Counted from the first letter of the stretch, positions 1 to 14,585 are shown. The stretch is 44,270 nt of DNA from Candidatus Bathyarchaeia archaeon (GCA_050010515.1 JBEKKX010000018.1:1-44270); one strand, 5' to 3'. Numbers and translations: made by a program. Notes: generated from the sequence alone by a model not told the origin.

Positions 1-42
1 CAGTTTAGACAGAATGGCGCATGAGAATTCGGGTTTCTCCAT
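1..42 (-). CDS. 5' end of a gene running off the window (MEKPEFSCAILSKL...)
   Basis: ATG at 42-40 preceded by GGGTGAAGG RBS-like sequence; frame open to the window edge. Confidence 0.4.
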   Translation of the reverse strand, partial: MEKPEFSCAILSKL

Positions 43-191
43 CCTTCACCCTAAATATTCAAGCTCAAACAAACTTAAACAGCAACATGTCAACTTTCAT
101 AATTTTGCAACAAGCTGGCGCGAGCTATTTCAATGAAGATTTACTGAGTACATCTTAACCCTTGAATATACTCGTTGATAGCCCTAACAGT

Positions 192-1187: not shown

Positions 1188-1331
1188 TTACCTAGCACGC
1201 TAAAGCAAGCCGTGTCATGGATGCTTGACATCGATGTTCTAAGATGCGACCAGTAACCGAGCGTAGCAGATTAACATGATTTTGAGCATAAAATTCTTAA
1301 ACTCAATAGTAGAGTGGATGACGGGTAATTA

Positions 1332-1469
1332 ATGAAGCCAAAAGAAGCAACAACTATAATGGATATGTCTAATGAATTTTACAATTTCTTATTCTCTCAA
1401 GTTGCAAAGTTAGAACTTAAGCTACCAGAATCAACTACTCAAGATATGTTCAATAGCCTTAACAACTAA
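1332..1469 (+). CDS. possible 45-aa ORF or gene remnant (MKPKEATTIMDMSNEFYNFLFSQ...)
   Basis: manual translation; ends 27 bp before an AGCGCGCT site. Confidence 0.3.
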   Translation: MKPKEATTIMDMSNEFYNFLFSQVAKLELKLPESTTQDMFNSLNN

Positions 1470-1630
1470 ACATTAACTTAATTTCGGGACAAGGCAGCGC
1501 GCTAAGCCACAAATATATTATGTCCAAAAAATAATGTATATATTAAAGAAAAAAATGGCTAATCTGTTGAGGCGCTATTACGAGTACTCCATCACTTCAG
1601 ATTCTTCAGAGAATTAGACCTTTATGGTCA

Positions 1631-2248
1631 TTGCAAAAGGAGAAAGACAAAAGCAATAGCGATTTCATTGGACATGCTTTCGTAAAATTTGTATTTGATT
1701 TTGTACCTCCAAATGTCAATGCAAAATATCGAGTCGTACCTGGTCCTTTATGGGTTAAAAGTCTTGAATGGATTGAGTGGGACGGTGCTCTTGTGAGAAA
1801 AGGAGCCAGATCCGGCCTTCCAAATTACTTTAAGACCAAAGACATAATTGCTCTTTTCGAAATGAAGGTAGGCGGCATCGTCGGTGGCAGAGAAAACAAG
1901 AAGAAAGAAGAGAAACAAGGGATGAAAAAGAAACAAGCGAAAACTGTAACTCAGGCTATTGCCTCTATAAGAAGTAATTTCATTGCTGCAGAGGAAAAAT
2001 GCCCTAACTTGAAAAAATGTTTTTACATAGCTTTAAGAGAATCGAGACCTCAACACATGTGGCAACTGAAAAAGGAAAGGTTACAATTTACAATAAACTA
2101 TTATGAATATACAAAAAGAATGCTCAATCAGAAAGAAATTGTAACATGCTTAATGTTTGATTCATCATCAATTGATAGAAAGAAAAATTCTGACATAGAG
2201 TTTCCTCGTGAATGGGAAAATTTGATGATTGAACTGAATCGTATTTAA
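1631..2248 (+). CDS. putative PD-(D/E)XK (restriction-endonuclease-like) nuclease
   Basis: EWDGALV...IIALFEMK fits the D...ExK catalytic pattern; Lys-rich; start uncertain (frame open back to 1571). Confidence 0.55.
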   Translation: MQKEKDKSNSDFIGHAFVKFVFDFVPPNVNAKYRVVPGPLWVKSLEWIEWDGALVRKGARSGLPNYFKTKDIIALFEMKVGGIVGGRENKKKEEKQGMKKKQAKTVTQAIASIRSNFIAAEEKCPNLKKCFYIALRESRPQHMWQLKKERLQFTINYYEYTKRMLNQKEIVTCLMFDSSSIDRKKNSDIEFPREWENLMIELNRI

Positions 2249-2462
2249 AGCGCGCTTAACTAATCAGCGAATCCGTTTGGTACGAGAGATTATTTGCGTT
2301 CAAAGCGAATTAGCTCAAAAAACGGTACCAAGTAGTGTGCGCTAATCTTCTATACTGGGATATCAGCTGTTCAACGAAAAACTAATTAATAGAAACTAAA
2401 GAGAAAAGAACGCTAGAGCATTCAATGGTTAAATCCTGAAATCGTAAAAGGAGAAAAATGGA

Positions 2463-3587
2463 ATGTCATGCACCAATCCTATCTTGCGCATCAGACAGAT
2501 TAGAACAAAGTTTGAATGCGAACTTATTGATCCCAAATCAATGCAGATTATAAGAATAGATAGAAAAGAAGCAAAATTTACAGCCGCGACAAAAAAAATA
2601 CTATCAACTTATGGAAGATTGGTAGACCTAGCAGATTCGTGCGCGCCGCGTGATTGGGTGGCATTCTCCCGTGAACTAAAAACTCTGTCAACCGAAACTG
2701 GAAAAATACTAAATAACATTTTGAAAGACCTCGGTTTAGACCCTGCAAAACAAAGTAATCTGACTCTAGCCCTGGATAATCAAACAGTAAAAATTCCCTG
2801 GGAACTCGCCTATTTACCACCCAAAAAACCTAATGCTCCATTAATGTATTGCGAAGAATTAGGAATCGGAAGACTCAGAGTTGTAAAAGCTTACAGTTGG
2901 ATTAACCCACCTGACCGAAGAAGAACCAACAGGGCTCTCGTTGTCGGCACCAACTATAGAAACACTAAGAGAAAAATAAAGCCCTTATCTTATGCAGAAG
3001 ACGAGGCTGAAAAAATCGCAAAAATTTTAGCGACCCATGGCTTTAAAGATGAAAACATCAAATTGCTAAAAGCTGAAAGAGCAACTAAAAAAGCAGTATT
3101 AGAGGAGCTTAAAAAAGGGGTAGACCTTTTCCATTTCACCGGGCACGGTATTATGACCAGAAACAGCAGCAAGATATGCCTGAACGATAAAGACTTGTCA
3201 GCAAAAACTTTTGAAAAGGAAAGCAAAAACTGCAGTGTTCCGAGACTGACATTTTTCAATGCTTGCGAATCTTCTATTGATACTCCACACAAAAATAAGC
3301 CTGCCAGCGTTCCGTATAGTTGGGCATATGCCATAGCTGGACAAGGTGGCAGAGTCTTCATAGGCACGTTATGGACTGTATGGGAACCTAATGCAGGAGA
3401 ATTCGCCCAGACCTTTTACAAGTCATTTCTTGGAAAGCAAAGAAAGACCCTCGCAGAGGCTATGAAAGAAGCTAGACTTGAAACCTTCCTAAAAGAAAAC
3501 TCTAATGGTAATACCTCTGATAATACTTGGCCAGGATACATGCTTTACGGGGTTCCAACACTTGTAAAAAGAGACATTCTGAGATGA
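2463..3587 (+). CDS. stand-alone CHAT-domain (caspase-like) protease
   Basis: catalytic His motif FHFTGHG and Cys motif FFNACES, plus IPWEL, FIGTLWTV and WPGYMLYG typical of CHAT. Confidence 0.9.
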   Translation: MSCTNPILRIRQIRTKFECELIDPKSMQIIRIDRKEAKFTAATKKILSTYGRLVDLADSCAPRDWVAFSRELKTLSTETGKILNNILKDLGLDPAKQSNLTLALDNQTVKIPWELAYLPPKKPNAPLMYCEELGIGRLRVVKAYSWINPPDRRRTNRALVVGTNYRNTKRKIKPLSYAEDEAEKIAKILATHGFKDENIKLLKAERATKKAVLEELKKGVDLFHFTGHGIMTRNSSKICLNDKDLSAKTFEKESKNCSVPRLTFFNACESSIDTPHKNKPASVPYSWAYAIAGQGGRVFIGTLWTVWEPNAGEFAQTFYKSFLGKQRKTLAEAMKEARLETFLKENSNGNTSDNTWPGYMLYGVPTLVKRDILR

Positions 3588-3636
3588 AGTTCTAAGAGCG
3601 CGCTCTTTATAAGCAAACCCTAACAATCAAAGTTTT

Positions 3637-3717
3637 ATGAAATCTGCAATATTTATGAACGGTAACAAGTTTGATGAATCAGTCTTTAGCTTAGAAGAAG
3701 CATTTGAAAAGATAGTT
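3637..3717 (+). pseudogene. gene 5' fragment (MKSAIFMNGNKFDESVFSLEEAFEKIV) apparently cut at the AGCGCGCGCT site
   Basis: TTTATAA TATA box about 30 bp upstream; protein-like sequence changes character at the motif at 3718, although the frame stays open a little further. Confidence 0.5.
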
Positions 3718-3785
3718 AGCGCGCGCTGCCGCCTATTGTTGAGGGGGAATTCAAAAGCGGAGAAATATTTGCGGTACCGTTGGTA

Positions 3786-3986
3786 TCAGTAAAGAATGAT
3801 TATGATGTTGTAACCCTGATAACTGAAAGATTGCTCAAGCTTCTCTATGAAAAGAATAACGTTCAATAAAGGCATTGTATACATAGGTCCATGTGCGCTT
3901 TGGAGCCTCGGGCTAGCTTCAGACTCGCGTTCTAACTTGTAAAACACGGTTGCTTTGTTTATGTCTATTTCTGAGGGGTCTTTCAT
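3786..3986 (-). CDS. hypothetical or decayed third gene of the mre11-rad50 operon
   Basis: ATGA overlap with the rad50 stop; no motif. Confidence 0.35.
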   Translation of the reverse strand: MKDPSEIDINKATVFYKLERESEASPRLQSAHGPMYTMPLLNVILFIEKLEQSFSYQGYNIIIILY

Positions 3987-5584
3987 ATCTCCCGTATTAT
4001 GGACTTGAATTCTTCGTCCTTTTCGACCATAAATTTCTTTCCGACGGCATCTGCGAATTCGTCATGAACTGTAATAATTATTAGTTGTTGGTCGGAAAGT
4101 TCGTTCAGTGCTTCTTTCAATTTGTTAGTGTTGGATTGATCAAAGTGATGTGTGGGCTCGTCAAGTAGTATGAAGTTGATTTCTTTCGAAGCTATGCGGT
4201 AAAGGCCGTATCTGATTGAAAATGCCAGAATGTCTCTTGCTGCACCGCTAAGATTGAATAGTGGAACTGGATGACCGTGAAGAAGTATTTCAAAGCCAAA
4301 ATCTTCCGTTATTTTGAGTTGTGCATCAAAGTCGCCGTCACTGAACTTAGACATGAAAAAATTCACTGCATTCTCCAAGTCACTCATCATAGAAGACCTT
4401 AGATGAACTCTGAATTCATCAATCGCGAGTTGCAGTTCATCCAAGAAACTGCGTTCTTCGCCTATTCGTTTAAAGACAAAATCCTTGTTTCCATAAGCTG
4501 CCAACTGCTTTTTCATCTTGTCGAGATTCTTCTTATTCGTATCAAGTTCGGTGCTCAATGCATCTCTCTCTGATGTTAAACCTTGCAATTCGGCCACCTT
4601 GCCGAATCCTCGGTCATAATCGAAATTGGCCTTTGCAAGATCAGAGTTAAACTTCTTCAGTTCATCCTCAGCATTTTTGAGCTTTGACTCAATTTCTTCG
4701 ATAATATGGGCGAATTGATGTTGAAGCTTCTTCTGCAAGTCTGTAGGTATTGCCTGTTTGCAAGTAGGGCATATTCCTTTGGCAATACCCTGCAAGATTT
4801 CCCTTTGCATATCCTTTTGAGAATTTAGGCTTGAAGTTGCCCTTATCGAGTTGTTTAATTGTTGAGTTGCTTCGACGGCACGATGGCGAGCGTCAGATAC
4901 ACTTTCTTGAGGTTCTCCAAGTCCGGATATGCTCTTACCTAATTCTTTCAGTCTTTCGGTAATCTCTGAAACACGAAAATCTATGTTTTTGCTCATATCC
5001 ATAATAGTTTTAATATTGCCGCTTGTGAAACCGTCAAGCCACTTCTGCAATGAGTCCGATGCATGCTTGGCTGACATCTTGAGGTCTTTTAGGTAATCAA
5101 AACCCAATATAGTTTCTATGAACACTTTCCTCTCTTCCGGTTTTATTTCTAACACTTTACGCAGTTCGTCTTGTTCAGAATAGAAAACGTTAGCGAACAG
5201 CTCATCATCGACACCGAGCAGTTCATAAAGAGCTTCCTTCACAGTTGCCACGCTTGAACCTATTTCTTTTCCATTACTCTTCAAAGAAGGTTTGTCACGA
5301 GGGCACGTTCTTTTCAAACAGTAATTATCACCATGATGTTCAAATTCAAGCTCAACCCAACCTTCTTCTGAACCTTCTCGGACGAGGTGTTCTGCCTTCA
5401 CTGCTGTTCCTGCTAGCCGTGTCGGAAAGGCCTGCTTGCCAAATAGTGCATAGGCAACCCCGTCCATAAGGGAACTTTTCCCTTGCCAATTCTTTCCAAA
5501 TACATAATTCTGACTGTCGGAAAACTCGATGTCCGCCGTGCCATAAGAGCGGAAGTTATGCAGTTTTAACCTCAAGAGTTTCAT
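3983..5584 (-). CDS. rad50: compact Rad50/SbcC SMC-family ATPase (533 aa)
   Basis: Walker A GKNWQGKSS, Q-loop YSEQ, zinc hook CPTC, signature LSGAAR, Walker B ILLDEPT, H-loop ITVH. Confidence 0.9.
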   Translation of the reverse strand: MKLLRLKLHNFRSYGTADIEFSDSQNYVFGKNWQGKSSLMDGVAYALFGKQAFPTRLAGTAVKAEHLVREGSEEGWVELEFEHHGDNYCLKRTCPRDKPSLKSNGKEIGSSVATVKEALYELLGVDDELFANVFYSEQDELRKVLEIKPEERKVFIETILGFDYLKDLKMSAKHASDSLQKWLDGFTSGNIKTIMDMSKNIDFRVSEITERLKELGKSISGLGEPQESVSDARHRAVEATQQLNNSIRATSSLNSQKDMQREILQGIAKGICPTCKQAIPTDLQKKLQHQFAHIIEEIESKLKNAEDELKKFNSDLAKANFDYDRGFGKVAELQGLTSERDALSTELDTNKKNLDKMKKQLAAYGNKDFVFKRIGEERSFLDELQLAIDEFRVHLRSSMMSDLENAVNFFMSKFSDGDFDAQLKITEDFGFEILLHGHPVPLFNLSGAARDILAFSIRYGLYRIASKEINFILLDEPTHHFDQSNTNKLKEALNELSDQQLIIITVHDEFADAVGKKFMVEKDEEFKSIIREI

Positions 5585-6699
5585 TTCTTCTTACCTCCCG
5601 CCTCTTCGAGGATTCCATTCAGGATTGAGTCTGAAAACTCGTCTCCTTTTTCGCGAAATGCTTCGACATACTGGACAGCCTGTTTTTGTCTTGAAGCAAA
5701 TCTTTTCTTGATAAAATCCTGAAAGTTGACTGTTGCTCGGATTTCAGGTGCAGTTCTTACTTGGTCTTGAAGACCCCCGTCAAAATGGACCTTGAGACAT
5801 CCCAACTGGTTGCCGATTGAACGAAGATGTTGCCATTCTATATCAGCAGACCTGCCTGATGATAGAGTTCCATCGATTTGAATGACTAAAAGGGCACCTG
5901 CTGAAGAATTGCTGCGAATCCATATTTCAATGGCTTTTTGGAAGTCTTTTGGAGATTTGCCCTCTCCATTCATTTCAGTGTATCTAATGTTTCTTGAAGG
6001 CGGCAGGACAACAAACTCATGTCTCTTTGTGTCAGTATCATACAGCACAAATCCTTTCTTGCCCAATTCCTTTGCCACATGTATCTCTAGAGAGCCCGGA
6101 GTCACAGCGTATCTTAAGTCCTCATACTGATGGTGATGGCCAGTAAACACTACCGGCCATTCTTTCAAGTCTTCTTTCTTGATTTCGGCGACAAAGGCAG
6201 GAATAAAGTGTGATCCCTCACAGAATTGATGCATAAGTAAAATGGAGTTTGCTGATGGTTTCCCTAGTTTCTCTAATGTTTCCTTAAATGACTCTCGGTC
6301 GCTCTTCCAAGAAATTCCACCAATTCTATAGCCATTAAACTCTTTGACTTCGTCATCGAGAAAATTAATAATCTCGAGATCGCTGAGTATTCTTAATTCT
6401 CCGCCTTGCCTACCTCGACCGTATTCATGGTTGCCTCCAATTGCAAAGACTTCTATTCCAGCCTCTTTGAGTTTAACAAGGGATTCTGCAACGTCTCCAA
6501 TGCAAGCAGCAAAATTATCAACACTCCTTCTGTAAGCACTACTGTCAAAAACGTCGCCTAGAAGGAACACGGCGTTGACTTTTCTTTTGAGTGATTCTTC
6601 AATCGATAAATTGAATTGTTTTGAGAAGTCTGAAATACGTTTGTCTGTATACGTGGTACAGCCTAAGTGAGGGTCGCCAATTACGGCAATTTTCATCAA
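5581..6699 (-). CDS. mre11: Mre11/SbcD metallophosphoesterase nuclease
   Basis: GDPHLG, GDVFD, GGNHE, MHQ, TGHHH and PGSLE motifs; ATGA-coupled to rad50. Confidence 0.9.
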   Translation of the reverse strand: MMKIAVIGDPHLGCTTYTDKRISDFSKQFNLSIEESLKRKVNAVFLLGDVFDSSAYRRSVDNFAACIGDVAESLVKLKEAGIEVFAIGGNHEYGRGRQGGELRILSDLEIINFLDDEVKEFNGYRIGGISWKSDRESFKETLEKLGKPSANSILLMHQFCEGSHFIPAFVAEIKKEDLKEWPVVFTGHHHQYEDLRYAVTPGSLEIHVAKELGKKGFVLYDTDTKRHEFVVLPPSRNIRYTEMNGEGKSPKDFQKAIEIWIRSNSSAGALLVIQIDGTLSSGRSADIEWQHLRSIGNQLGCLKVHFDGGLQDQVRTAPEIRATVNFQDFIKKRFASRQKQAVQYVEAFREKGDEFSDSILNGILEEAGGKKK

Positions 6700-6837
6700 A
6701 TTCCCCTATTCTTGATTATATCTTTAGACCTTATATTATTACTTAAAATATTCTACAGAAAAAAACAGGTGCTAAAAGTTAAGACACAATTTCGTAGCTT
6801 TTCATCTTCCTTTGCCTTCAGACCAGCGCGCGCGGTT

Positions 6838-7989
6838 TTAGGGTTTTTTGAAAACATCTAACCCTTTTTTCACCGCCTCGCCAAGAAAAAGATTATCAAA
6901 GATTGTTCCTTCACTTTCTCTTAGCTTCATGACACGGATTATTTCTTCAAATTTGCCATGAGCTATCCCGTTGGCAAACACCGCCGCGCCTTCTGCCGCT
7001 TGTTTAGACACTTTTGCCTCGCCTTGAAATCTCACGACATCTACGTGTGATCCGATCTCGCTAAAGAAATCTTGCAACCTAAACTTTATCGCGTCGAGGA
7101 ATTGTGGCATATTTACAAATCTCCCACTTAGCATCACTTCTTTGGGCTTAATTGAGGGTAAAAGTGAGGCAGCATCCTTAACTATTGATTCCATCATCAG
7201 GTCATATCCCGCTCTCACTTCTTCGTTGCTTCTAGCAGTATTAACAAACTCTTCTAAGGACTTTGAGGGATCAATCCCAGCAACCGACGCGCACCCTCCC
7301 GAAAAAAGCATGAGTTTTGAGAAATCTTTAACCGTGTTAGCAAGGGCGTATGCCAGCTCTGAATCAACAAAGCCCATACCCAGGTAGGAGGGAAAGCCTG
7401 CGGTCCCAGCCATAGCATCAACTATTTGGCCGTTTCTAATCGCCAGCGCCGAGGTATATGCAAATCCTATTTCCAAAAGGATAAAATTGGTTTCATCATA
7501 GCGGATTTTTAGTCTTTTTGCTTGATTCTTAACTGCTAAAACAGCGCTGAGAACTTTATCGGATGTACCCATGTCTATTTTGTTAGCCTTTCTGTACTTA
7601 GGAACCGTCGTTAAGTGAACCACTGACGGCGTGAACCATACCTCTAGGTCCTCGGCGGTCTTCATCATTTTCATGGCTTCTCTTAAGCCAATGATCTTTA
7701 GCTTCTTTTCCACGTCAGCCTCCGTTACAAAAGTTGCCAATGCTATATCTGCATAGCTTGCATCCCTTGCTTTTTGAAGAGGCATTCCATAGCCAGAGGG
7801 GCCAACAATTGCATCTATGAAACCCGCAGTCTGTTGGGTTTCTCTAAGCTTTTCAATTATGAGGCTGGGGTTTTTGGTTATTTCGTCTCTTGGGATGGCT
7901 GAGTCAATTAAAACTCTTCCGTCGTCGTCATCGAAACCATAGATATCCATGCTTTTTGTTCCAGAATCTATACCGATTGCTTTGACCAT
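6838..7989 (-). CDS. DUF1464 family ASKHA-fold (butyrate-kinase-like) protein
   Basis: N-terminal GIDSGTKS phosphate-1 motif, GPSGYG, DMGTSDK. Confidence 0.8.
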   Translation of the reverse strand: MVKAIGIDSGTKSMDIYGFDDDDGRVLIDSAIPRDEITKNPSLIIEKLRETQQTAGFIDAIVGPSGYGMPLQKARDASYADIALATFVTEADVEKKLKIIGLREAMKMMKTAEDLEVWFTPSVVHLTTVPKYRKANKIDMGTSDKVLSAVLAVKNQAKRLKIRYDETNFILLEIGFAYTSALAIRNGQIVDAMAGTAGFPSYLGMGFVDSELAYALANTVKDFSKLMLFSGGCASVAGIDPSKSLEEFVNTARSNEEVRAGYDLMMESIVKDAASLLPSIKPKEVMLSGRFVNMPQFLDAIKFRLQDFFSEIGSHVDVVRFQGEAKVSKQAAEGAAVFANGIAHGKFEEIIRVMKLRESEGTIFDNLFLGEAVKKGLDVFKKP

Positions 7990-7991
7990 TT

Positions 7992-8954
7992 TTATTCCTT
8001 CAAAACGGAAGCGCCTGAATTATTCGCTTTAGTGTAGAATACTTCTCCGCCGCCGTTTTTGTTCAGATATTGCTTTAACTCTTCGGTTAAGCGTTTCGCT
8101 TCGCTCTCTCCTTTTACTATTGAGTAGAACGTTGGTCCCCAAGAAGTTTGGCATGCGCATGAGCTTCGGTGCAACATGAGTTTGACGCCTTCTTCTACCA
8201 CTTGATTGCAGTAGGTTCCTTCTTGATAGTCCTTCCAAAATCGACCGAGCTTTTGATTAAACTCAGTTAGTGCTTCCCCGAATCCTTTGAGATCTTTTTC
8301 TACGAAGGCAGGCATGAGTTTAACTAAAACCAGTCTTGAGAGTTCGTCAGATAACTCTTTAGGCATCACCTTTAGGTTCCCGAGAATTTCATCTTCTTTT
8401 TCTCGGAGCTTAGCTATTTTAAGTCTGGATTCTTCGGGAACAGCTACGACGAAAAACCAGTTTTTCGGTAACGCACTTTGGAATATGAGCGGAGGGACCA
8501 TCTTTTCTCTTTGGTCAACTTTGAAGCCGCCTTCAATTATGAATCCACCCGTTTTGAATGCGTACACGCCTAAGGCAGTTATTGTTCCTCTGCCCATAAT
8601 TAGCGCTACATCTTCAACGCTCAAATTCAATTCATACAGCTTGGATAATCCAACGCCTATCGAGAGCGCTAAAGTGGTGTGAAAACCTAAGCCGACAAAC
8701 TTTGGAATCTCTCTCTTAATCCGAACTTCTGCGCCTTCTATGCGCGTTTTTTCCACAAAGCGTTTCGCAAATTTGTATGCATCTTTATCTTCAGCCTTGA
8801 TTCCTTTGGCTTTGGCAACTTCAACTTCAAGCGGAAGATCAATGGCGAAACCTACCGTTCCATAGAGTCTACCTAAATCGCCTGTTAAATCAAAATTACC
8901 TGTGTGCAAATGTGCCGGAGCGCTTATCGCCAACTTCTCCAAATAAACCACCAA
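7992..8954 (-). CDS. beta-ribofuranosylaminobenzene 5'-phosphate (RFA-P) synthase family, GHMP-kinase fold
   Basis: APAHLHTG..DL...GR.YG, IPKFVGLG..T, GGFIIEGG, QTSWGPT. Confidence 0.85.
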   Translation of the reverse strand: MVVYLEKLAISAPAHLHTGNFDLTGDLGRLYGTVGFAIDLPLEVEVAKAKGIKAEDKDAYKFAKRFVEKTRIEGAEVRIKREIPKFVGLGFHTTLALSIGVGLSKLYELNLSVEDVALIMGRGTITALGVYAFKTGGFIIEGGFKVDQREKMVPPLIFQSALPKNWFFVVAVPEESRLKIAKLREKEDEILGNLKVMPKELSDELSRLVLVKLMPAFVEKDLKGFGEALTEFNQKLGRFWKDYQEGTYCNQVVEEGVKLMLHRSSCACQTSWGPTFYSIVKGESEAKRLTEELKQYLNKNGGGEVFYTKANNSGASVLKE

Positions 8955-9160
8955 GCAATTTTTAAAGACGCAATTATTAAGTCGAAACTAATAAACCTAT
9001 TAGATTAGCCAGAATTATCTTGCACAATCAAAAATGCGGCTTATTGATGGGCGGCAGACATAACAAATATCTGGGTGCACTAAAATAAAACAAATCGGAA
9101 AATCATAAAGTAAAGAATAATAAGCCACAACACCATTGCGGTCACTTAGATACGGGTGAA

Positions 9161-9979
9161 ATGGTGGAAACTGGAAAATTGAGGGTTAAGCCGAAGGATA
9201 GTGAAGGGTTCTTGACTATCGATGTTCAAAATCAAAAGCCCGAAAACGAGATTGAGCTAGAAAAAGTTGGTGTTGAGGGTTTAAGGAAGTTAGTGTCGTT
9301 GAAAAGGGCTAAAGTCACCTACAACGTTATTGTTACAATAAACAGTTACATAACCTTGCCAGCTAATCTTCGCGGTGCTCACATGAGCCGTTTTGTCGAA
9401 TCAGTTGAAGAGACTTCCAGCACCGCTTCGTCAATAGAAGATTTGGCTGAGCAGATTTCAAAAGGAGCATTAGAAAAGCTTGGATTTGATTGTCAGACTG
9501 AAGTCTTTGGTGAACTTCCCTACGAAAGGACAAGGCCAGGTGGAGCGAAAGAAAATTCAATTGCTCAAATGTTCGCCAAATTCTCTACTATGACAAAAAG
9601 GAAAACTGCAGGCATTCAAATCAACGGAGTCTTAGCTTGCCCATGCTCAAAAGAAATGTGCAACGGCCTAACTCACAACCAAAGAGGCAGCCTCAGCGTC
9701 GAAATCGACAGCTCAAACCACAAAATTCAGCTGCTAGATGTCATCGAGATTTGCAGTCAGAGTTTTAGTTCACCTACATTCTCATTATTAAAAAGGCCTG
9801 AAGAAAAGAAAGTGGTGGAAAAAATGCATAAAAACGCCAAATTTGTGGAAGATGTGACGAGAAAGTGCGTGCAGCTATTAAAAGAAAAGTATCCAAATAG
9901 GTATTGCAAAGTCAAATGCGCGAGCATAGAATCCATTCACGATCATAACGTTTGTTCAGAGTGGCGCGGAGTCCTATAA
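9161..9979 (+). CDS. mptA: GTP cyclohydrolase, FolE2/MptA family
   Basis: DVQ, RGAHMSRF, ACPCS, HNQR, KRPEE, FVEDV, ESIHDH motifs. Confidence 0.85.
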   Translation: MVETGKLRVKPKDSEGFLTIDVQNQKPENEIELEKVGVEGLRKLVSLKRAKVTYNVIVTINSYITLPANLRGAHMSRFVESVEETSSTASSIEDLAEQISKGALEKLGFDCQTEVFGELPYERTRPGGAKENSIAQMFAKFSTMTKRKTAGIQINGVLACPCSKEMCNGLTHNQRGSLSVEIDSSNHKIQLLDVIEICSQSFSSPTFSLLKRPEEKKVVEKMHKNAKFVEDVTRKCVQLLKEKYPNRYCKVKCASIESIHDHNVCSEWRGVL

Positions 9980-9992
9980 CCGAGGTTACAGC

Positions 9993-10352
9993 ATGTATCG
10001 ACTAAGAGTTGAAACAACGTTTGATGCGGCTCACAATATTCTCGCTTCCAATGGCAAATGTGAAAGGTTACATGGGCACACGTGGAAAATAGAACTCTTC
10101 GTTATAGGCGAAAAAACAGAATCTACTGGCATGGTTGTAGACTTTAGCGTTCTTAAGGCAAGCCTGCAAGAATTAGCCGAAAAACTTGATCATACATACC
10201 TAAATGAGCTAACAGAAATCGGCAACCCAACATCCGAAAACATTTCAAAATACGCTTTTGATTACCTAAAGAAAGTAATACCCAACTGCGTGACACTCGA
10301 AAAAGTGAGAGTCTGGGAAAGCCCAAAAAGTTGGTGCGAATACTTAGGGTAA
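9993..10352 (+). CDS. queD: 6-carboxytetrahydropterin synthase / PTPS family
   Basis: FDAAH, CERLHGHTW, DHTYLN, NPTSEN, VWES. Confidence 0.9.
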   Translation: MYRLRVETTFDAAHNILASNGKCERLHGHTWKIELFVIGEKTESTGMVVDFSVLKASLQELAEKLDHTYLNELTEIGNPTSENISKYAFDYLKKVIPNCVTLEKVRVWESPKSWCEYLG

Positions 10353-10482
10353 GCCCAAATAAAAAAGAGTTTTTTGGACGATATTGAGTTTTCAGAAAAC
10401 TGTTCATCGCTTCTATGAACGGCGACTGCAAAGAAGCAAGAAAGAGCTGTGGGCCTCAAAATTATCATTTTTCACCAATTGT

Positions 10483-11634
10483 TTAACTCGCCTGCGCGTT
10501 TGATTGTTGTTGTTTTCTTTTGGTTCTTGTTGCGATTATTAGGCTTGCCACTGCGACTCCTGCGATGACTATGGCGACTAAAACAGTTAGAAGTAGTGTG
10601 TTTCCGCTGGCTGTGCTGGAACTTGTAGCGGTTGGTGTTGGCGTTTGGGTCGCTTGGAGTGCTGGGTTTCCTTGTTGTTGGGCATATACTGAAGCGGGGA
10701 TTGCGCCGGGACCAGCGAATGAACTTGAGCTTGGAGCGCCTGTTGTTGAGCCTGTTTCTGGTGTTGCGGTGGCTGCGTATGGGGTTATCCAGTAGCTTTG
10801 CTGTTGTGTGTACATCGTGATTGTTGCCGTTGTTTGTGGAGGGACTATCAGCGTTGAGCCTGCAACTCCAATGTAGGCTGGCTCCATTGGGCCAGTTACG
10901 TTTACGGGTTCGCCAGCGATGATGACTTGCGGTGCGGTGATGTCGGTGAGGTTTAGGGGTAGCCAGCTCCATGCGTCGATTTGTTCTGGTGCTGTGGGTG
11001 TGACGAGGGTTGCATAGCCGTCGGATCCAGTTGTGGTCCAGGTTGTGACGTTGGGTTCGTAGCCCCAGTAGTATGAGGATCCGAGGGTGGATGCTGAAAC
11101 GGATGCGTCTGCGGCTGCGGTTCCGTTGGCGTAGAGAACTTGTATTGTGAGTGTATTTGTTGGGAATGAAGCCACGTTTTGAGTTGTGATTGTGATAGTT
11201 ATTGAGCTGGAGATTTGCTGTACTGAGTATCCGTATTCGATTGCTGGGGCTATGGAGATGGGCAATGATGGAGTGCTTGGGGAGCTTTCACCGCTGCTTG
11301 ATGTGGCTCCTAGTCCCAGGGGAACTGGATAGTTCGAGTTGGTTTGGTTGTTTGCGGTGACGGTGAAGATGTATTGTCCGTTTGGAAGTTCGAAGGAGGC
11401 GGCGGGATAATAGGTTTGGACTGAGGATTCCTGGTAGCCGGTCATGTTGAATGCTGAGACTGTGAAGTAGCCTGATTGTATGTTTGAGGTTTGGATGTTT
11501 ATTTGGACGTTGTTGTATGAGGTTAGGCTGGCAGACGAAAGTGAAGTTACGCTTAAAAGGCTGAGACCTAAAACAATTATGAACGCAACAAAACAGAAGC
11601 TTGTCTTGAAGTTACGCATTAAAATTGCCTCCAA
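10483..11634 (-). CDS. Thr/Ser-rich cell-surface protein with signal peptide and C-terminal TM anchor
   Basis: signal peptide; beta-rich body; TPTPT linker; TM followed by a basic tail; true start likely ATG at 11619. Confidence 0.8.
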   Translation of the reverse strand: MEAILMRNFKTSFCFVAFIIVLGLSLLSVTSLSSASLTSYNNVQINIQTSNIQSGYFTVSAFNMTGYQESSVQTYYPAASFELPNGQYIFTVTANNQTNSNYPVPLGLGATSSSGESSPSTPSLPISIAPAIEYGYSVQQISSSITITITTQNVASFPTNTLTIQVLYANGTAAADASVSASTLGSSYYWGYEPNVTTWTTTGSDGYATLVTPTAPEQIDAWSWLPLNLTDITAPQVIIAGEPVNVTGPMEPAYIGVAGSTLIVPPQTTATITMYTQQQSYWITPYAATATPETGSTTGAPSSSSFAGPGAIPASVYAQQQGNPALQATQTPTPTATSSSTASGNTLLLTVLVAIVIAGVAVASLIIATRTKRKQQQSNAQAS

Positions 11635-12190
11635 TGTTTATTGTAATTTGTATCGGCGTGGTCTGTATTCCGTACGTTGGGCCTGTTTGGCCAATTATGT
11701 TGTAGGTTCCTGATGAGACCGGTTCTCCTTGAACTTGGGCGTTGAAATTGCATGTCTGCAGCCAAGTGAAGTTGGCCGAAATGCTGTCTCCGGCGGGAAG
11801 CGGCTCGATTGCTATGAATTGCGGTATGGCTTGGAAATTTGACCACTGGTACACTACGTTGTTTGTGCCGTTGTAAACTTGAAAATCAAAATCCAATCCT
11901 GTGTGCGTAAAGTTTATTGTTTGACTACTGATGTTGGTGATTGTCAAAGTTAGGTTGACAGGTTCGCCTAAACTGTAAGAGGTTTTGTCGAGGGTCATGG
12001 TGAGTTCGAGATTGCCGTTTCCTCCTGATGCCAAGGGCTGGTTGGGGTATTGAAGGATAGAACCTGGTTCAGAATTTGATTTTGGCGTCTGTTGGGCAGG
12101 GAAGAACGATAGGCTTACTCCGCCCAAAAGAATTATTGCAACTGAAGCAAGAACAATTGCAAGGATTATTTTCTTTTTCTGTTCACTCAT
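11612..12190 (-). CDS. exported protein with a BsuPI-like Ig-fold domain
   Basis: signal anchor; DKTSYSLGEPVNLTLTITN...FDFQVYN...VYQWS pattern. Confidence 0.7.
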   Translation of the reverse strand: MSEQKKKIILAIVLASVAIILLGGVSLSFFPAQQTPKSNSEPGSILQYPNQPLASGGNGNLELTMTLDKTSYSLGEPVNLTLTITNISSQTINFTHTGLDFDFQVYNGTNNVVYQWSNFQAIPQFIAIEPLPAGDSISANFTWLQTCNFNAQVQGEPVSSGTYNIIGQTGPTYGIQTTPIQITINIGGNFNA

Positions 12191-12254
12191 GAGCTATCGT
12201 CCTTTTGGGTTTGATAAGCTTCTAGACTTTGGAGCCTTACTTAATTCTATGCAA

Positions 12255-12295
12255 TAGAACATGTGTTCTAATTGTTTGATTTTTCGTTCTAATTG
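12255..12295. promoter_or_regulatory. candidate operator between divergent genes
   Basis: palindrome TAGAAC-ATGT-GTTCTA (12255-12270) and a GTTCTAATTG direct repeat (12265, 12286). Confidence 0.55.
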
Positions 12296-12355
12296 ATTGA
12301 ACGGAAAATCATTTATAATATCAACGGTGAATGTGATTGGCGGAGTAGTGGTACC

Positions 12356-12778
12356 TTGACAGCGGATAAACCTGAAAGTATGTTGAAGGGGACTACGCTG
12401 GAGGTTTATCGGTTCTTGTTAAAGAGCAACAAGCCTGTTGGAGCAAGAGAGGTTCAAAAAGCTCTCGATTTGAGCACTCCTTCATTGGCGGTTTATCATC
12501 TCTCTAAACTAGAGGACGTAGGGTTGCTAAAACGTGAGGATGGCGGCTATGCTATCAATAAGGTTGTTTTGGAAGACGGCATAAAGATCAGTCGCTTCTT
12601 AATCCCAAGGTTTCTGTTTTACGCCATTTTTTCAGTTTTACTTCTCGTCACCGAATTAACCGTTCTAAGACCGCCCGTAGTAACTGGCGAATACTTCTTC
12701 GCCACAACAGGTACATTCATATGTGCCTTAGCTTTCTGCTACGAAACTGCAAGGGTATGGAACAAAGGCGGTTTCTAG
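12356..12778 (+). CDS. winged-HTH transcription regulator with two C-terminal TM helices
   Basis: GAREVQKALDLSTPSLAVYHLSKLEDVGLL HTH; two hydrophobic segments; start set at the TTG after GGAG. Confidence 0.8.
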   Translation: MTADKPESMLKGTTLEVYRFLLKSNKPVGAREVQKALDLSTPSLAVYHLSKLEDVGLLKREDGGYAINKVVLEDGIKISRFLIPRFLFYAIFSVLLLVTELTVLRPPVVTGEYFFATTGTFICALAFCYETARVWNKGGF

Positions 12779-12919
12779 CGCGCTCTACAGTTGCTCGTGT
12801 TCACTTGCGCTTAGCCACCACTCGAGTCTTGAAACAAAAGTGACTTTGTTATTTTTTCGCTACAGCCATATACATTTAAGAAAGCTTGAACCCGCTTTTA
12901 GAATGTTTAGGTGTTAGCT

Positions 12920-13000
12920 ATGAGCGACAAAGAGCCTCATCAGCCTCACACGTTGGGTGCGACACGTGCGCTATATGTACGTCTTGTAAACGAATTGTAG
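12920..13000 (+). pseudogene. short ORF or gene stub (MSDKEPHQPHTLGATRALYVRLVNEL) whose stop overlaps an AGCGCGC site
   Basis: AGGTG RBS; TAG at 12998-13000 overlaps the motif. Confidence 0.35.
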
Positions 13001-13005
13001 CGCGC

Positions 13006-13074
13006 GAGCCTAAGACGATTATGAACGCTAAAAAACGGAAGTTTGTCTTAAAGTTAAACGTTTAAATTAACTCC
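13006..13074 (-). pseudogene. decayed copy of the RBS and signal-peptide region of the 10483-11634 gene
   Basis: cctaagacgattatgaacgctaaaaaacggaagtttgtcttaaagtta aligns with cctaaaacaattatgaacgcaacaaaacagaagcttgtcttgaagtta (11567-11614); start codon lost; similarity ends at the GCGCGC motif. Confidence 0.75.
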
Positions 13075-13415
13075 GTTGCTTAAAACAGAGTTTTCGGTTC
13101 ATATAAAGCTCACCTTAAATCTTCTCTTGACGTTGCTTTTTGGTTCTGTTGATGCTAAAGATTGTAGGGTTGAAGAAATAATGGGCAATTGACTTGCAAC
13201 AATTAAGTGTGAATAGGCATGGTTAACGTATTTGTCCGTTAGCGTTGAGGATTTTGCTGATGATTTTTCGTCTATGGTCACGTTGAACGTATCTTTAAGA
13301 AAACTAGGGATATGATGATGCTTGGGATGTCAGGGTTAGTGAGATGGTTATCAGCACGCGAAGCGTTGTCAGTTGAGGTGGCGTTGGTTTGAGTATTTGA
13401 TGCAGTTGAGCGCGC

Positions 13416-13850
13416 TCATCGGCTGTTGTCGGCTAAGGGATATCGGCTCATGGCAGCGAGCATTACTTCACTGAAGCTTTTTTTGCTGAGGTGCCTAGCA
13501 AAATCGGAAGTAGCTATTATACCGACCAACACGTTATTCTTCGTAACGGGAAGCCGCCTTATTTTGTACTTGACCATTTTCCTCGCAGCATCTCGCAGTG
13601 GGGACTCCTCCTCAATTGTTATGAGCGGATCTGACATTATCTCAGAGACTTTAGTTTCAAGCGGTTTTTTCTGCGCCAATACCCTTCTAACTAAGTCTCT
13701 TTCAGTAACTATGCCCTTAGCCACAATACCCTCCATTACTACAAGATCACCTACATCTTGTTGGTGCATTAGCTTTGCAGCCTCAAACACGGTCCCCTGA
13801 ACATCAATTGTGATGACATTCGTTGTCATAAAATCTCTTACAGTTGGCAT
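13416..13850 (-). CDS. CBS-domain pair protein
   Basis: VRDFMT...GIVTERD...VSEIMS...IRRLPV...GIIATSD. Confidence 0.92.
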   Translation of the reverse strand: MPTVRDFMTTNVITIDVQGTVFEAAKLMHQQDVGDLVVMEGIVAKGIVTERDLVRRVLAQKKPLETKVSEIMSDPLITIEEESPLRDAARKMVKYKIRRLPVTKNNVLVGIIATSDFARHLSKKSFSEVMLAAMSRYPLADNSR

Positions 13851-14154
13851 AATTTTACAAATCTATAAACTATCGTATAAAAGTTTTGTACGTTACAATT
13901 CTGGATCAGGATCCAAATATGTTATACCTGATTTCCATTGCAGTCAAGATTTCAGACCGAAATATCTTTCCAGTTTCATGTTTGTTGCCAGCGACTTCTT
14001 TGTATTCGATCAACAGCAACTCATAGAACCGTTTAAGCAAGGTAATGTTAATTATGTCACTCGATCTCTGAATCTCAAACGTTTCTCCGCTTCCTCTTAC
14101 GCTCTTTGTCAGAATCGTGTAATCACCTTTAGTGGTGAAAACGATCTTGCATGA

Positions 14155-14295
14155 TTCGCGCAACCCTTCAACCCACGCAAGGGCTTTACAGTCAAAGTCT
14201 TAGAAAACCCTGAAGAAATAAAAAGCCTCTTGGAAGTAGGATTCGAATATGTCTGCCAAAAGGACAACTTAATATTCCTGAGAAAAAGAAAATGA
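14155..14295 (+). pseudogene. C-terminal remnant of a tyrosine integrase
   Basis: start-less frame ...FTVKVLENPEEIKSLLEVGFEYVCQKDNLIFLRKRK*, resembling the GFEYV...FRKRK tail I recall from archaeal tRNA-associated integrases; 53 bp upstream of tRNA-His. Confidence 0.65.
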
Positions 14296-14348
14296 TTAAT
14301 AACCAAGCTATCAGCGACGGGCAAAAAGTAGCCGAAAACACCAAAAGC

Positions 14349-14422
14349 GGCCGAGGTGAGGTAGCTTGGTAGCCTAGAGGCCTGTGGAGCCTTTTGCCAG
14401 GGTTCAAATCCCTGCCTCGGCC
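14349..14422 (+). tRNA. tRNA-His(GUG) with encoded G-1
   Basis: acceptor GCCGAGG/CCTCGGC, anticodon arm GAGGC-CTGTGGA-GCCTT, T-loop TTCAAAT. Confidence 0.95.
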
Positions 14423-14447
14423 CTCCTCAAATTTGATCCACACAAGT

Positions 14448-14566
14448 GCAGGGGTCGCCGAGCATGGTCAAAGGCGTAGAACCACTCTCCCACAAGAGGG
14501 CGGTATGTCAGCTTCAGGAGCCTATCCTGTAGAGGTTCGTGGGTTCAAATCCCACCCCCTGCACCA
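14448..14566 (+). tRNA. tRNA-Leu(CAG) with a 31-nt intron (14480-14510) at non-canonical position 29/30; CCA encoded
   Basis: acceptor GCAGGGG/CCCCTGC; long variable arm; removing the intron restores the TAGGC/GCCTA stem; full bulge-helix-bulge can be drawn. Confidence 0.92.
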
Positions 14567-14585
14567 TAAGCAAGATCTATAAGTT

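Follow-up and report, generated by a model that had tools for sequence, protein, structure and literature searches.

What is a short GC palindrome doing at the borders of unrelated genes in an archaeal genome? The question is raised by contig C18 of Candidatus Bathyarchaeia archaeon (GCA_050010515.1, JBEKKX010000018.1:1-44270), a stretch of 44,270 nucleotides that we call the window, in whose left 13.4 kb the octamer AGCGCGCT and the hexamer GCGCGC recur between genes. An earlier note on this DNA had taken the octamer for the crossover core of an integron-like system that shuffles gene cassettes. We find instead that GCGCGC forms the constant six-base tip, left and right, of members of a putative superfamily of IS5-like DDE transposons, including insertion sequences (IS), miniature transposable elements with inverted repeats (MITEs) and at least one passenger cassette. 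It is probable, in our judgement, that the hexamer is borne by these elements, and that its solo copies, which lack the signature of an element end, are transposon scars at junctions.

The genome containing the window (G000; 2.38 Mb in 66 contigs, 42.6% G+C) was compared by DNA matching with a panel of 30 relatives that includes G001, G003, G004, G012, G013 and G016. Metagenome contigs (the L series, such as L074 and L076) and, as population contigs, Logan contigs of four runs (X4 and X12 among them) were compared as well; window parts without contig cover in some Logan runs were excluded from the evidence. DNA near-identical to the window occurs in peat and wetland metagenomes.

When the 40-nt flanks of every run of (GC)n with n of at least 3 were clustered, 52 flanks fell into inverted-repeat families, each starting directly at the hexamer. 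These represent at least four related families of terminal inverted repeats, with 52-60 ends in the genome, in which GCGCGC adjoins TGSCTTGTCCC, CAGCTTGTTGC, CAGTCTGTTGCTAAT, ATGCGTGTTCC or ATAAGTGTTCA; the repeats are paired in nine elements of G000 and seven copies of G016. Intact elements (Table 1) are 1122-1211 bp long and encode proteins of 332-346 amino acids with DUF772 and DDE_Tnp_1 domains, PF01609 and PF05598 scoring above their cut-offs in contigs C16, C57, C45 and C62. The 336-amino-acid transposase (C16:53545-54555) falls below the NCBIfam cut-offs for both IS5_4 (NF033581; 121.3 vs 140 bits) and IS1182 (NF033551; 155 vs 270). Its homologues are labelled 'IS5 family transposase' in their sources, and the source records name Candidatus Bathyarchaeia or Bathyarchaeota. 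Family F1 is represented in the sister genome G016 by seven complete 1.1-kb copies, tipped by the hexamer on either side; beyond the hexamer, neither these seven nor three copies of G000 show a duplication. The combination of hexamer and F1 repeat is found in many Bathyarchaeia metagenome-assembled genomes, the others, among the matches listed, being single matches in high-GC bacteria.

Five shorter sequences of 163-481 bp have the same ends and no transposase (Table 1). They are MITEs: below about 500 bp, present in several copies, and sharing their inverted repeats with the IS. In L074, a 770-bp segment (7876-8655) holds a DUF998 membrane-protein gene and no transposase between family-F3 ends and hexamers, with IS-family inverted repeats of 14-25 nt inside the hexamers. 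Having IS-type repeats, a non-transposase gene and a matching empty site, it is a mobile insertion cassette (MIC). This is the one clear passenger cassette, seen in a relative; none was shown within the window. Element ends also pile up side by side (C57:117-150, C35:1762-1786, C35:26191/26253 and C22:116-228), and at truncation junctions the hexamers stay with the element ends. The C35 arrangement was considered as a nested insertion; it is a truncation and was rejected as clean nesting.

Two further cases deserve mention here. At C16:36301-39345, about 3 kb are framed by a pair of F1-type ends whose hexamers have decayed (CCGCGC and GCGCCC). The two long inner open reading frames (ORFs), read by eye only, look ornithine-cyclodeaminase-like and DedA-like; the element may be an old passenger carrier. 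A different repeat, with GCGCGC in its middle (...caacatag...GCGCGCactttcaacatg...), lies at C9:38772, C12:59367, C41:4585 and L022 ~14000-14080, and a related copy of it without the hexamer follows the CBS gene in G016.

Across the genome the octamer is not special as such. It occurs 42 times, against 43 expected from a maximal-order Markov model and 18 from base composition. The signal lies in the placement of GCGCGC: 46% of its copies fall in non-coding DNA, which makes up 17% of the genome, compared with only 7-9% for GGCGCC, GCCGGC and CCGCGG. Among the 358 runs of (GC)n with n of at least 3, 60 are element ends by signature count and 298 are solo, and the solo runs divide into 94 non-coding and 204 coding. 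Runs of eight or more bases account for 25/94 of the former and 15/204 of the latter. Near genes, a distance of 12 nt or less separates 21 of the 298 solo runs from a 3' end and three from a 5' end (comparison figure for six control hexamers, 8/1061). The motif does not serve as a signal at gene ends in general, a possibility raised earlier, since the 21 runs are set against about 2525 ORF-called genes and five of them belong to this window. About one third of the 42 octamers run on into GGGACAAGSC on one side, and the bases adjoining the hexamer at 97 element ends look random; the relevant unit is the hexamer, or (GC)n, and not the octamer. A HIP1-type explanation was rejected, GCGATCGC being found only 12 times genome-wide, as was a palindrome extension or hairpin around the motif, which is chance-like genome-wide (0-4 nt past the run).

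Within the window, a recount bore out the five exact octamers previously listed (1496, 2249, 3597, 12777 and 13409), where 0.63 would be expected per 44 kb and where none of 100 dinucleotide shuffles reached five. GCGCGC starts at 11 positions, all at or before 13410 and none in 13416-44270, and only one of them, at 2641, falls within a long ORF; this agrees with the earlier count of a single in-gene copy and none in the last 30 kb. The extended forms at 3718, 6825 and 12999 are present as well. The supposed decayed copies at 1194 and 2334 do not exceed chance: the window has 16 one-mismatch octamers where 12 would be expected, a count equalled or passed by 18 of 100 shuffles. Five copies touch stop codons or lie within 10 nt of them, so the reported link to gene ends holds in this part, while the gene at 1631-2248, previously called a nuclease, finds no confirmation in Pfam or PADLOC. 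With 42 octamers in 2.38 Mb, finding at least five within 12 kb has a Poisson probability of 3e-6, which multiplication by the number of windows raises to about 6e-4; for eight non-coding (GC)n runs in 13.5 kb the two values are 2e-6 and about 4e-4. This density is matched only by two IS-rich stretches, on C57 and at C16:50-57 kb, and the region is a real hot spot of the motif.

Two places in the window are element ends. A profile built from 58 element ends matches the window at 92-122 (E 1e-5) and 1470-1502 (E 4e-7) and at no other site. Five other contigs (C21, C66, C34, C23 and C15) have ends that match bases 1-122 at 100% identity, and the window therefore begins inside a multi-copy IS whose body lies beyond the contig start. 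The second end, at 1333-1506, is 96% identical to C44:132-305, its flank groups with 34 other ends, and the full 1.1-kb copies in G016 share it. The five exact octamers have no common flanks and so are not part of one long repeat, an idea that was considered and rejected. If the solo copies are scars, the left 13.4 kb would be a hot spot of element traffic, with two element ends and seven scars.

Breaks in synteny and in the population end at motif copies, in keeping with the earlier claim that the motif marks junctions of mobile or variable DNA (6833/6837, 13418, ~1503, ~6830 and 13008). G016 is collinear with 6837-10366 and 13418-14567, and 248 bp there replace 10367-13417; the match to G004 (93% identity) starts at 6833. 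In Logan runs X4 and X12, single unitigs span 1473/1474-6859, which, with an inferred word length of 31 letters, places branch points at ~1503 and ~6829. An abundant strain in X12 (depth ~77 vs ~9) covers only 6777-11566 and 13009 onwards. The block at 1504-6824 is thus absent from this high-depth strain, and one X12 contig joins 11566 to 13009 (depth 80, side 176), skipping 1442 bp with its boundary 2 nt past the run at 13000-13006. Contigs of several runs cover every motif copy (some runs may be the source of the assembly), so that the junctions are not assembly chimeras, an artefact about which the earlier note had warned. Elsewhere in the genome, a gene at C13:71092-72286 is inverted relative to G003 and G013; on one side an F1-end hexamer lies at a distance of 64 nt, and on the other the 514-bp spacer contains a solo hexamer.

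The most telling site is the DUF1464 stop. In G004 and L076 an MptE-like gene and DUF1464 converge with few bases between them and no GC run, G004 reading TGAAGAAC followed directly by GGTTTA. L074 has the same two flanks around its cassette, which was inserted in the 8-nt spacer between the convergent genes: GCGCGC, ATGCGTGTTCCTAA, the DUF998 gene, TTTAGGCACAAACAT, GCGCAC. In G000 the MptE side lies on contig C22 (gene C22:223-1602), followed by GCGCGC and an F1 end, and the DUF1464 side in the window is preceded by GCGCGCGCG and unrelated DNA, with the hexamer run only. Since the two empty sites have no GC run, the hexamer here evidently came with an element and was not a pre-existing target, and the run at 6826-6834 appears to descend from an element that had inserted between these two genes. 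The MptE-like gene adjoins DUF1464 in G004, L074 and L076 and lies on another contig in G000, so that the pterin-synthesis cluster has been split by mobile DNA.

Other sites agree with this. The six related loci compared at the CBS stop are all without a GC run: in G013, GTTGA is directly followed by TCATCGG, where the window has GTTGA, GCGCGC and TCATCGG in succession. At C57:150 (compared with one relative, G016) and C57:2409 (three relatives), the hexamer of the element end is immediately followed by homology to genes of the relatives, in which a GC run is missing from that place; the same one-sided pattern is seen at C39:19725 against G016 and at a truncated F1 end at C35:26252. Clean two-sided empty sites were not found for the elements of G000 and G016 in searches that used L007, L003, L042, L046, L044 and L045, the junctions being one-sided in every case, and in a comparison of L071 with C2 homology begins 19 nt off the hexamer.

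These observations suggest a simple course of events. Elements would insert into short spacers past stop codons, where insertions are tolerated. GCGCGC being a palindrome, the hexamer pair of an element can be read as a direct repeat no less than as an inverted one. An element would therefore be lost most simply by slippage or recombination between its hexamers, and what stayed behind would be a single run of varying length, (GC)3-(GC)4.5, with no inverted repeat. The elements would also cause deletions and inversions and bring new neighbours together. Precise excision of Tn10 and Tn5, which is independent of transposase and proceeds by slippage between flanking repeats across inverted repeats, resembles this in that loss of the element leaves one flanking repeat, here with variable (GC)n length; it differs in that the repeat here is apparently element-borne.

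Several points weigh against the scar reading. The evidence for an element origin of the solo copies is direct at 6826 alone and indirect at 13000 and 13410. The copies at 2250, 3598, 3719 and 12778 offer no comparison, since among the genomes searched only this strain has the block 1504-6824 and its neighbours. The 58-end profile finds no inverted-repeat remnant beside any of the seven solo copies, and flank-pair BLAST of 30 element pairs gave, in the sequences examined, neither an empty site nor an allele pair of MITE and solo hexamer. Upstream of 13410 the homology to G013 is not significant, and the C13 inversion was read at 66-71% identity, with breakpoints that are not base-precise. Two G016 copies have variant tips (ACGCGC/GCGCGT at L059, GCGCGC/GCGCGG at L061); statistics on variant hexamers from 80 loci of the genome contig collection are biased by the selecting pattern. 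An IS5-type DDE transposase without target duplication is unusual; a duplication of 2-4 bp may be concealed in the GC run, where it would merge with the inverted-repeat tip, and the right hexamer of the L074 cassette, GCGCAC, could hold the AC of the empty site. Two families occupy an identical left junction, F3 in L074 and F1 on C22 of G000, a hint that insertions may be drawn to hexamers already in place. Finally, the genome-wide coding statistics rest on crude ORF-based gene calls (83% coding).

An alternative is that GCGCGC or (GC)4 is a preferred target of the transposases, of which 2-6 bp would be duplicated at insertion; solo copies would then be unused targets, or donor sites mended after cut-and-paste excision, and scars would draw further insertions. 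The IS5 group classically duplicates a short palindromic target. The lack of any duplication outside the hexamer in the ten copies of G016 and G000 would follow, a 4-bp GCGC duplication fits all seven G016 copies, including L059 and L061, and the left junction shared by two families, the ends piled up on C57, C35 and C22 and the over-representation of long (GC)n in non-coding DNA all point the same way. Against it, the empty sites of G004 and L076, the six relatives at the CBS stop, three relatives at C57:2409 and G016 at C57:150 are all without a GC run; nor would a strict GC-only target of 6-8 bp by itself raise sites in AT-rich spacers sixfold. We consider this explanation unlikely. Of the alternatives named in the earlier note, a footprint at an IS target site came closest to the outcome, except that the element brings the hexamer along and does not find it in the target; for cut-and-rejoin at a GCGCGC restriction site we found nothing in support. 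A related idea is that the hexamer is a site at which IS5-like transposases cut and rejoin, so that any DNA between two copies could be moved, deleted or inverted, with or without inverted repeats. The facts that leave room for it are that different families share one junction, that single genes lie between octamers and that breakpoints coincide with solo copies; we hold it to be distinctly improbable.

The integron-like reading draws on some of the same facts. Octamers bracket the CHAT gene (2249 and 3597) and sit at block borders, the blocks have unrelated functions, breakpoints fall on copies, and one relative has a single gene between two hexamers. That cassette, however, has the 14-25-nt inverted repeats of an IS family, and beyond the window many non-coding hexamers are plain IS or MITE ends. 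The tyrosine integrases that were supposed to sit by the tRNAs are missing: PF00589 has five matches in the genome and none on C18, and the tRNA neighbours encode MFS, radical SAM, response regulator and KdpC proteins. No cassette was found in a second context, a relative of the CHAT gene being absent from the scan of the genome contig collection, and the predicted joints between non-adjacent copies came down to one of low support, 1505 to 5429 (side 24, depth 9.6; contigs only). Sites of the attC type are imperfect hairpins of 60-140 nt with RYYYAAC/GTTRRRY cores; the solo flanks share no sequence, and their palindromes extend 0-4 nt. Cassette arrays thus resemble the window in having a short motif between unrelated genes, near stops, and differ from it in that here an integron integrase and attC-type hairpins are lacking, cassettes were not seen to move, and the motif lies on DDE transposon ends. 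We regard this as the least probable of the readings. Hardly more credible is that the solo copies are a functional short motif (a protein-binding site, an RNA-end signal or a Z-DNA-prone spacer) or a compositional accident, unrelated to elements. It would suit their excess near 3' over 5' ends and the bare flanks of the solo copies, but so few of the gene ends carry them, five in the window, that a general function is hard to see; they are not kept at orthologous sites in relatives, their clustering is significant genome-wide, and 12600-13450 has no Rfam match to a known RNA at E<=1, the window containing two tRNAs only.

The preferred reading, element-borne hexamers with scars at junctions, involves known kinds of object: IS, MITEs, MICs and footprints. 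The elements are like IS5 (and the neighbouring IS1182) and its MITEs in their length of ~1.1-1.2 kb, single ORF with DUF772 and DDE_Tnp_1, terminal inverted repeats, short non-autonomous derivatives in many copies and contig breaks at their ends; they are unlike them in a transposase under the NCBIfam cut-offs, in bearing the same outer palindromic GCGCGC on divergent repeats and in lacking an outside duplication. The L074 cassette matches MICs in its IS-type repeats around a passenger gene without transposase, and differs in being one example from a relative. The literature searched contained nothing on IS ends or targets with GCGCGC, nor did the passages searched in PMC13343696, and nothing on an invariant GC palindrome that lies outside divergent repeats, comes without ordinary target duplication and persists as a scar.

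Table 1. Elements, motif copies and gene blocks; positions are those of the window unless a contig is named.
Feature	Position	Strand	Remarks
Intact IS copies	C16:53498-54620, C57:5607-6737, C45:1200-2411		ORF with DUF772 and DDE_Tnp_1
MITEs	C40:1229-1391, C44:16483-16647, C48:397-640, C35:26253-26498, C57:1927-2407		shared inverted repeats
Right end of multi-copy IS, family F2 (...TTGCAACAAGCTG)	1-123		then hexamer variant GCGCGA, 118-123
F1-type IS right-end remnant (...TTTCGGGACAAGGCA)	1333-1503	+	ends in hexamer; includes AGCGCGCT at 1496-1503
Strain-specific accessory block	1504-6824		Pfam, PADLOC; no DNA match >47 bases in 30 relatives
Unknown gene	1631-2248		product without Pfam or PADLOC family match
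Solo AGCGCGCT	2249-2256		immediately 3' of TAA of unknown gene 1631-2248; no similar flank elsewhere in genome
CHAT protease gene	2463-3587		Pfam/PADLOC
Solo AGCGCGCT	3597-3604		9 nt past CHAT stop; inside 14-nt palindrome AAGAGCGCGCTCTT
Solo A(GC)4T, AGCGCGCGCT	3718-3727		extended form
LmuB-like SMC ATPase gene	3983-5584	-	Pfam/PADLOC
Metallophos gene	5581-6699	-	Pfam/PADLOC
Solo A(GC)4G	6825-6834		GC run 6826-6834 ends 3 nt ahead of DUF1464 stop
Conserved core block: DUF1464, GHMP kinase, GCHY-1 (MptA-type), PTPS	6835-10366		Pfam
1442-bp segment: BsuPI-domain gene, HTH gene, truncated gene fragment	11567-13008		motif copies 12777 and 12999
Solo AGCGCGCT	12777-12784		overlaps TAG of HTH gene 12293-12778
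Solo AGCGCGCG	12999-13006		2 nt left of indel boundary 13008/13009
Solo AGCGCGCT	13409-13416		13416 is first base of TCA (13416-13418), minus-strand stop of CBS gene

The gene blocks between the motif copies are of different kinds. The earlier description of the region as accessory is apt for 1504-6824, which is strain-specific, and fails for 6838-10352, a conserved cluster predicted to serve pterin synthesis; G004 and G016 match the core block at 86-93% DNA identity, G001 and G012 at 66-68%. Within the strain-specific block, the 533-amino-acid SMC-type ATPase gives a full-length match (E 3e-27) to the Lamassu LmuB model, and its gene overlaps that of the 372-amino-acid Metallophos protein (3983-6699 together, minus strand). 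The pair has no DNA match in the 30 relatives and may be a defence module.

In the later block an unknown gene precedes the BsuPI-domain, helix-turn-helix (HTH) and CBS genes (Pfam). The 1442-bp segment is flanked by diverged direct repeats (11567-11640 and 13009-13080), which at 70-125 bp take in the 5' end of the gene 10483-11634; the insertion would thus have supplied that gene with a new N-terminus and upstream region. The stretch 12785-12998, bounded by two motif copies, was considered as a MITE and rejected, since it is a truncated gene start: 12804-12961 spans a small gene's promoter and initial ~25 codons, is 90% identical to G003, where the gene is intact with a zinc-finger-like continuation, and has 77-90% identical copies in at least six relatives, several in some. 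Beside tRNA-His, about 300 bp (13928-14227) are not found in G016, and an X4 contig skips this stretch by a joint from 13934 to 14212 with 12 other letters between; no GC run is involved. Between 122 and 1187, many contig joints and loose ends gather at 935-968 and 1153-1187, 932-1187 is 88% identical to C21:38261-38516, and the whole resembles a family of genes for small membrane proteins, variable and with boundaries that recur.

Altogether, runs of (GC)3-5 in AT-rich spacers offer a simple tag by which transposon junctions, those of today and apparently those of the past, can be recognised in an archaeal lineage that is uncultured and abundant in peat. The tag maps the entry of accessory genes, such as the LmuB-like/Metallophos pair and the CHAT protease, and the splitting of conserved clusters, as of MptE from DUF1464 in the pterin cluster. 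Were the cut-and-rejoin reading true, Bathyarchaeia would possess cassette shuffling by DDE transposases, integron-like in outcome, with scars as entry points. An IS5-like group that carries an invariant GC palindrome at its ends and shows no ordinary target duplication raises, moreover, the question of how these ends are cut and joined.

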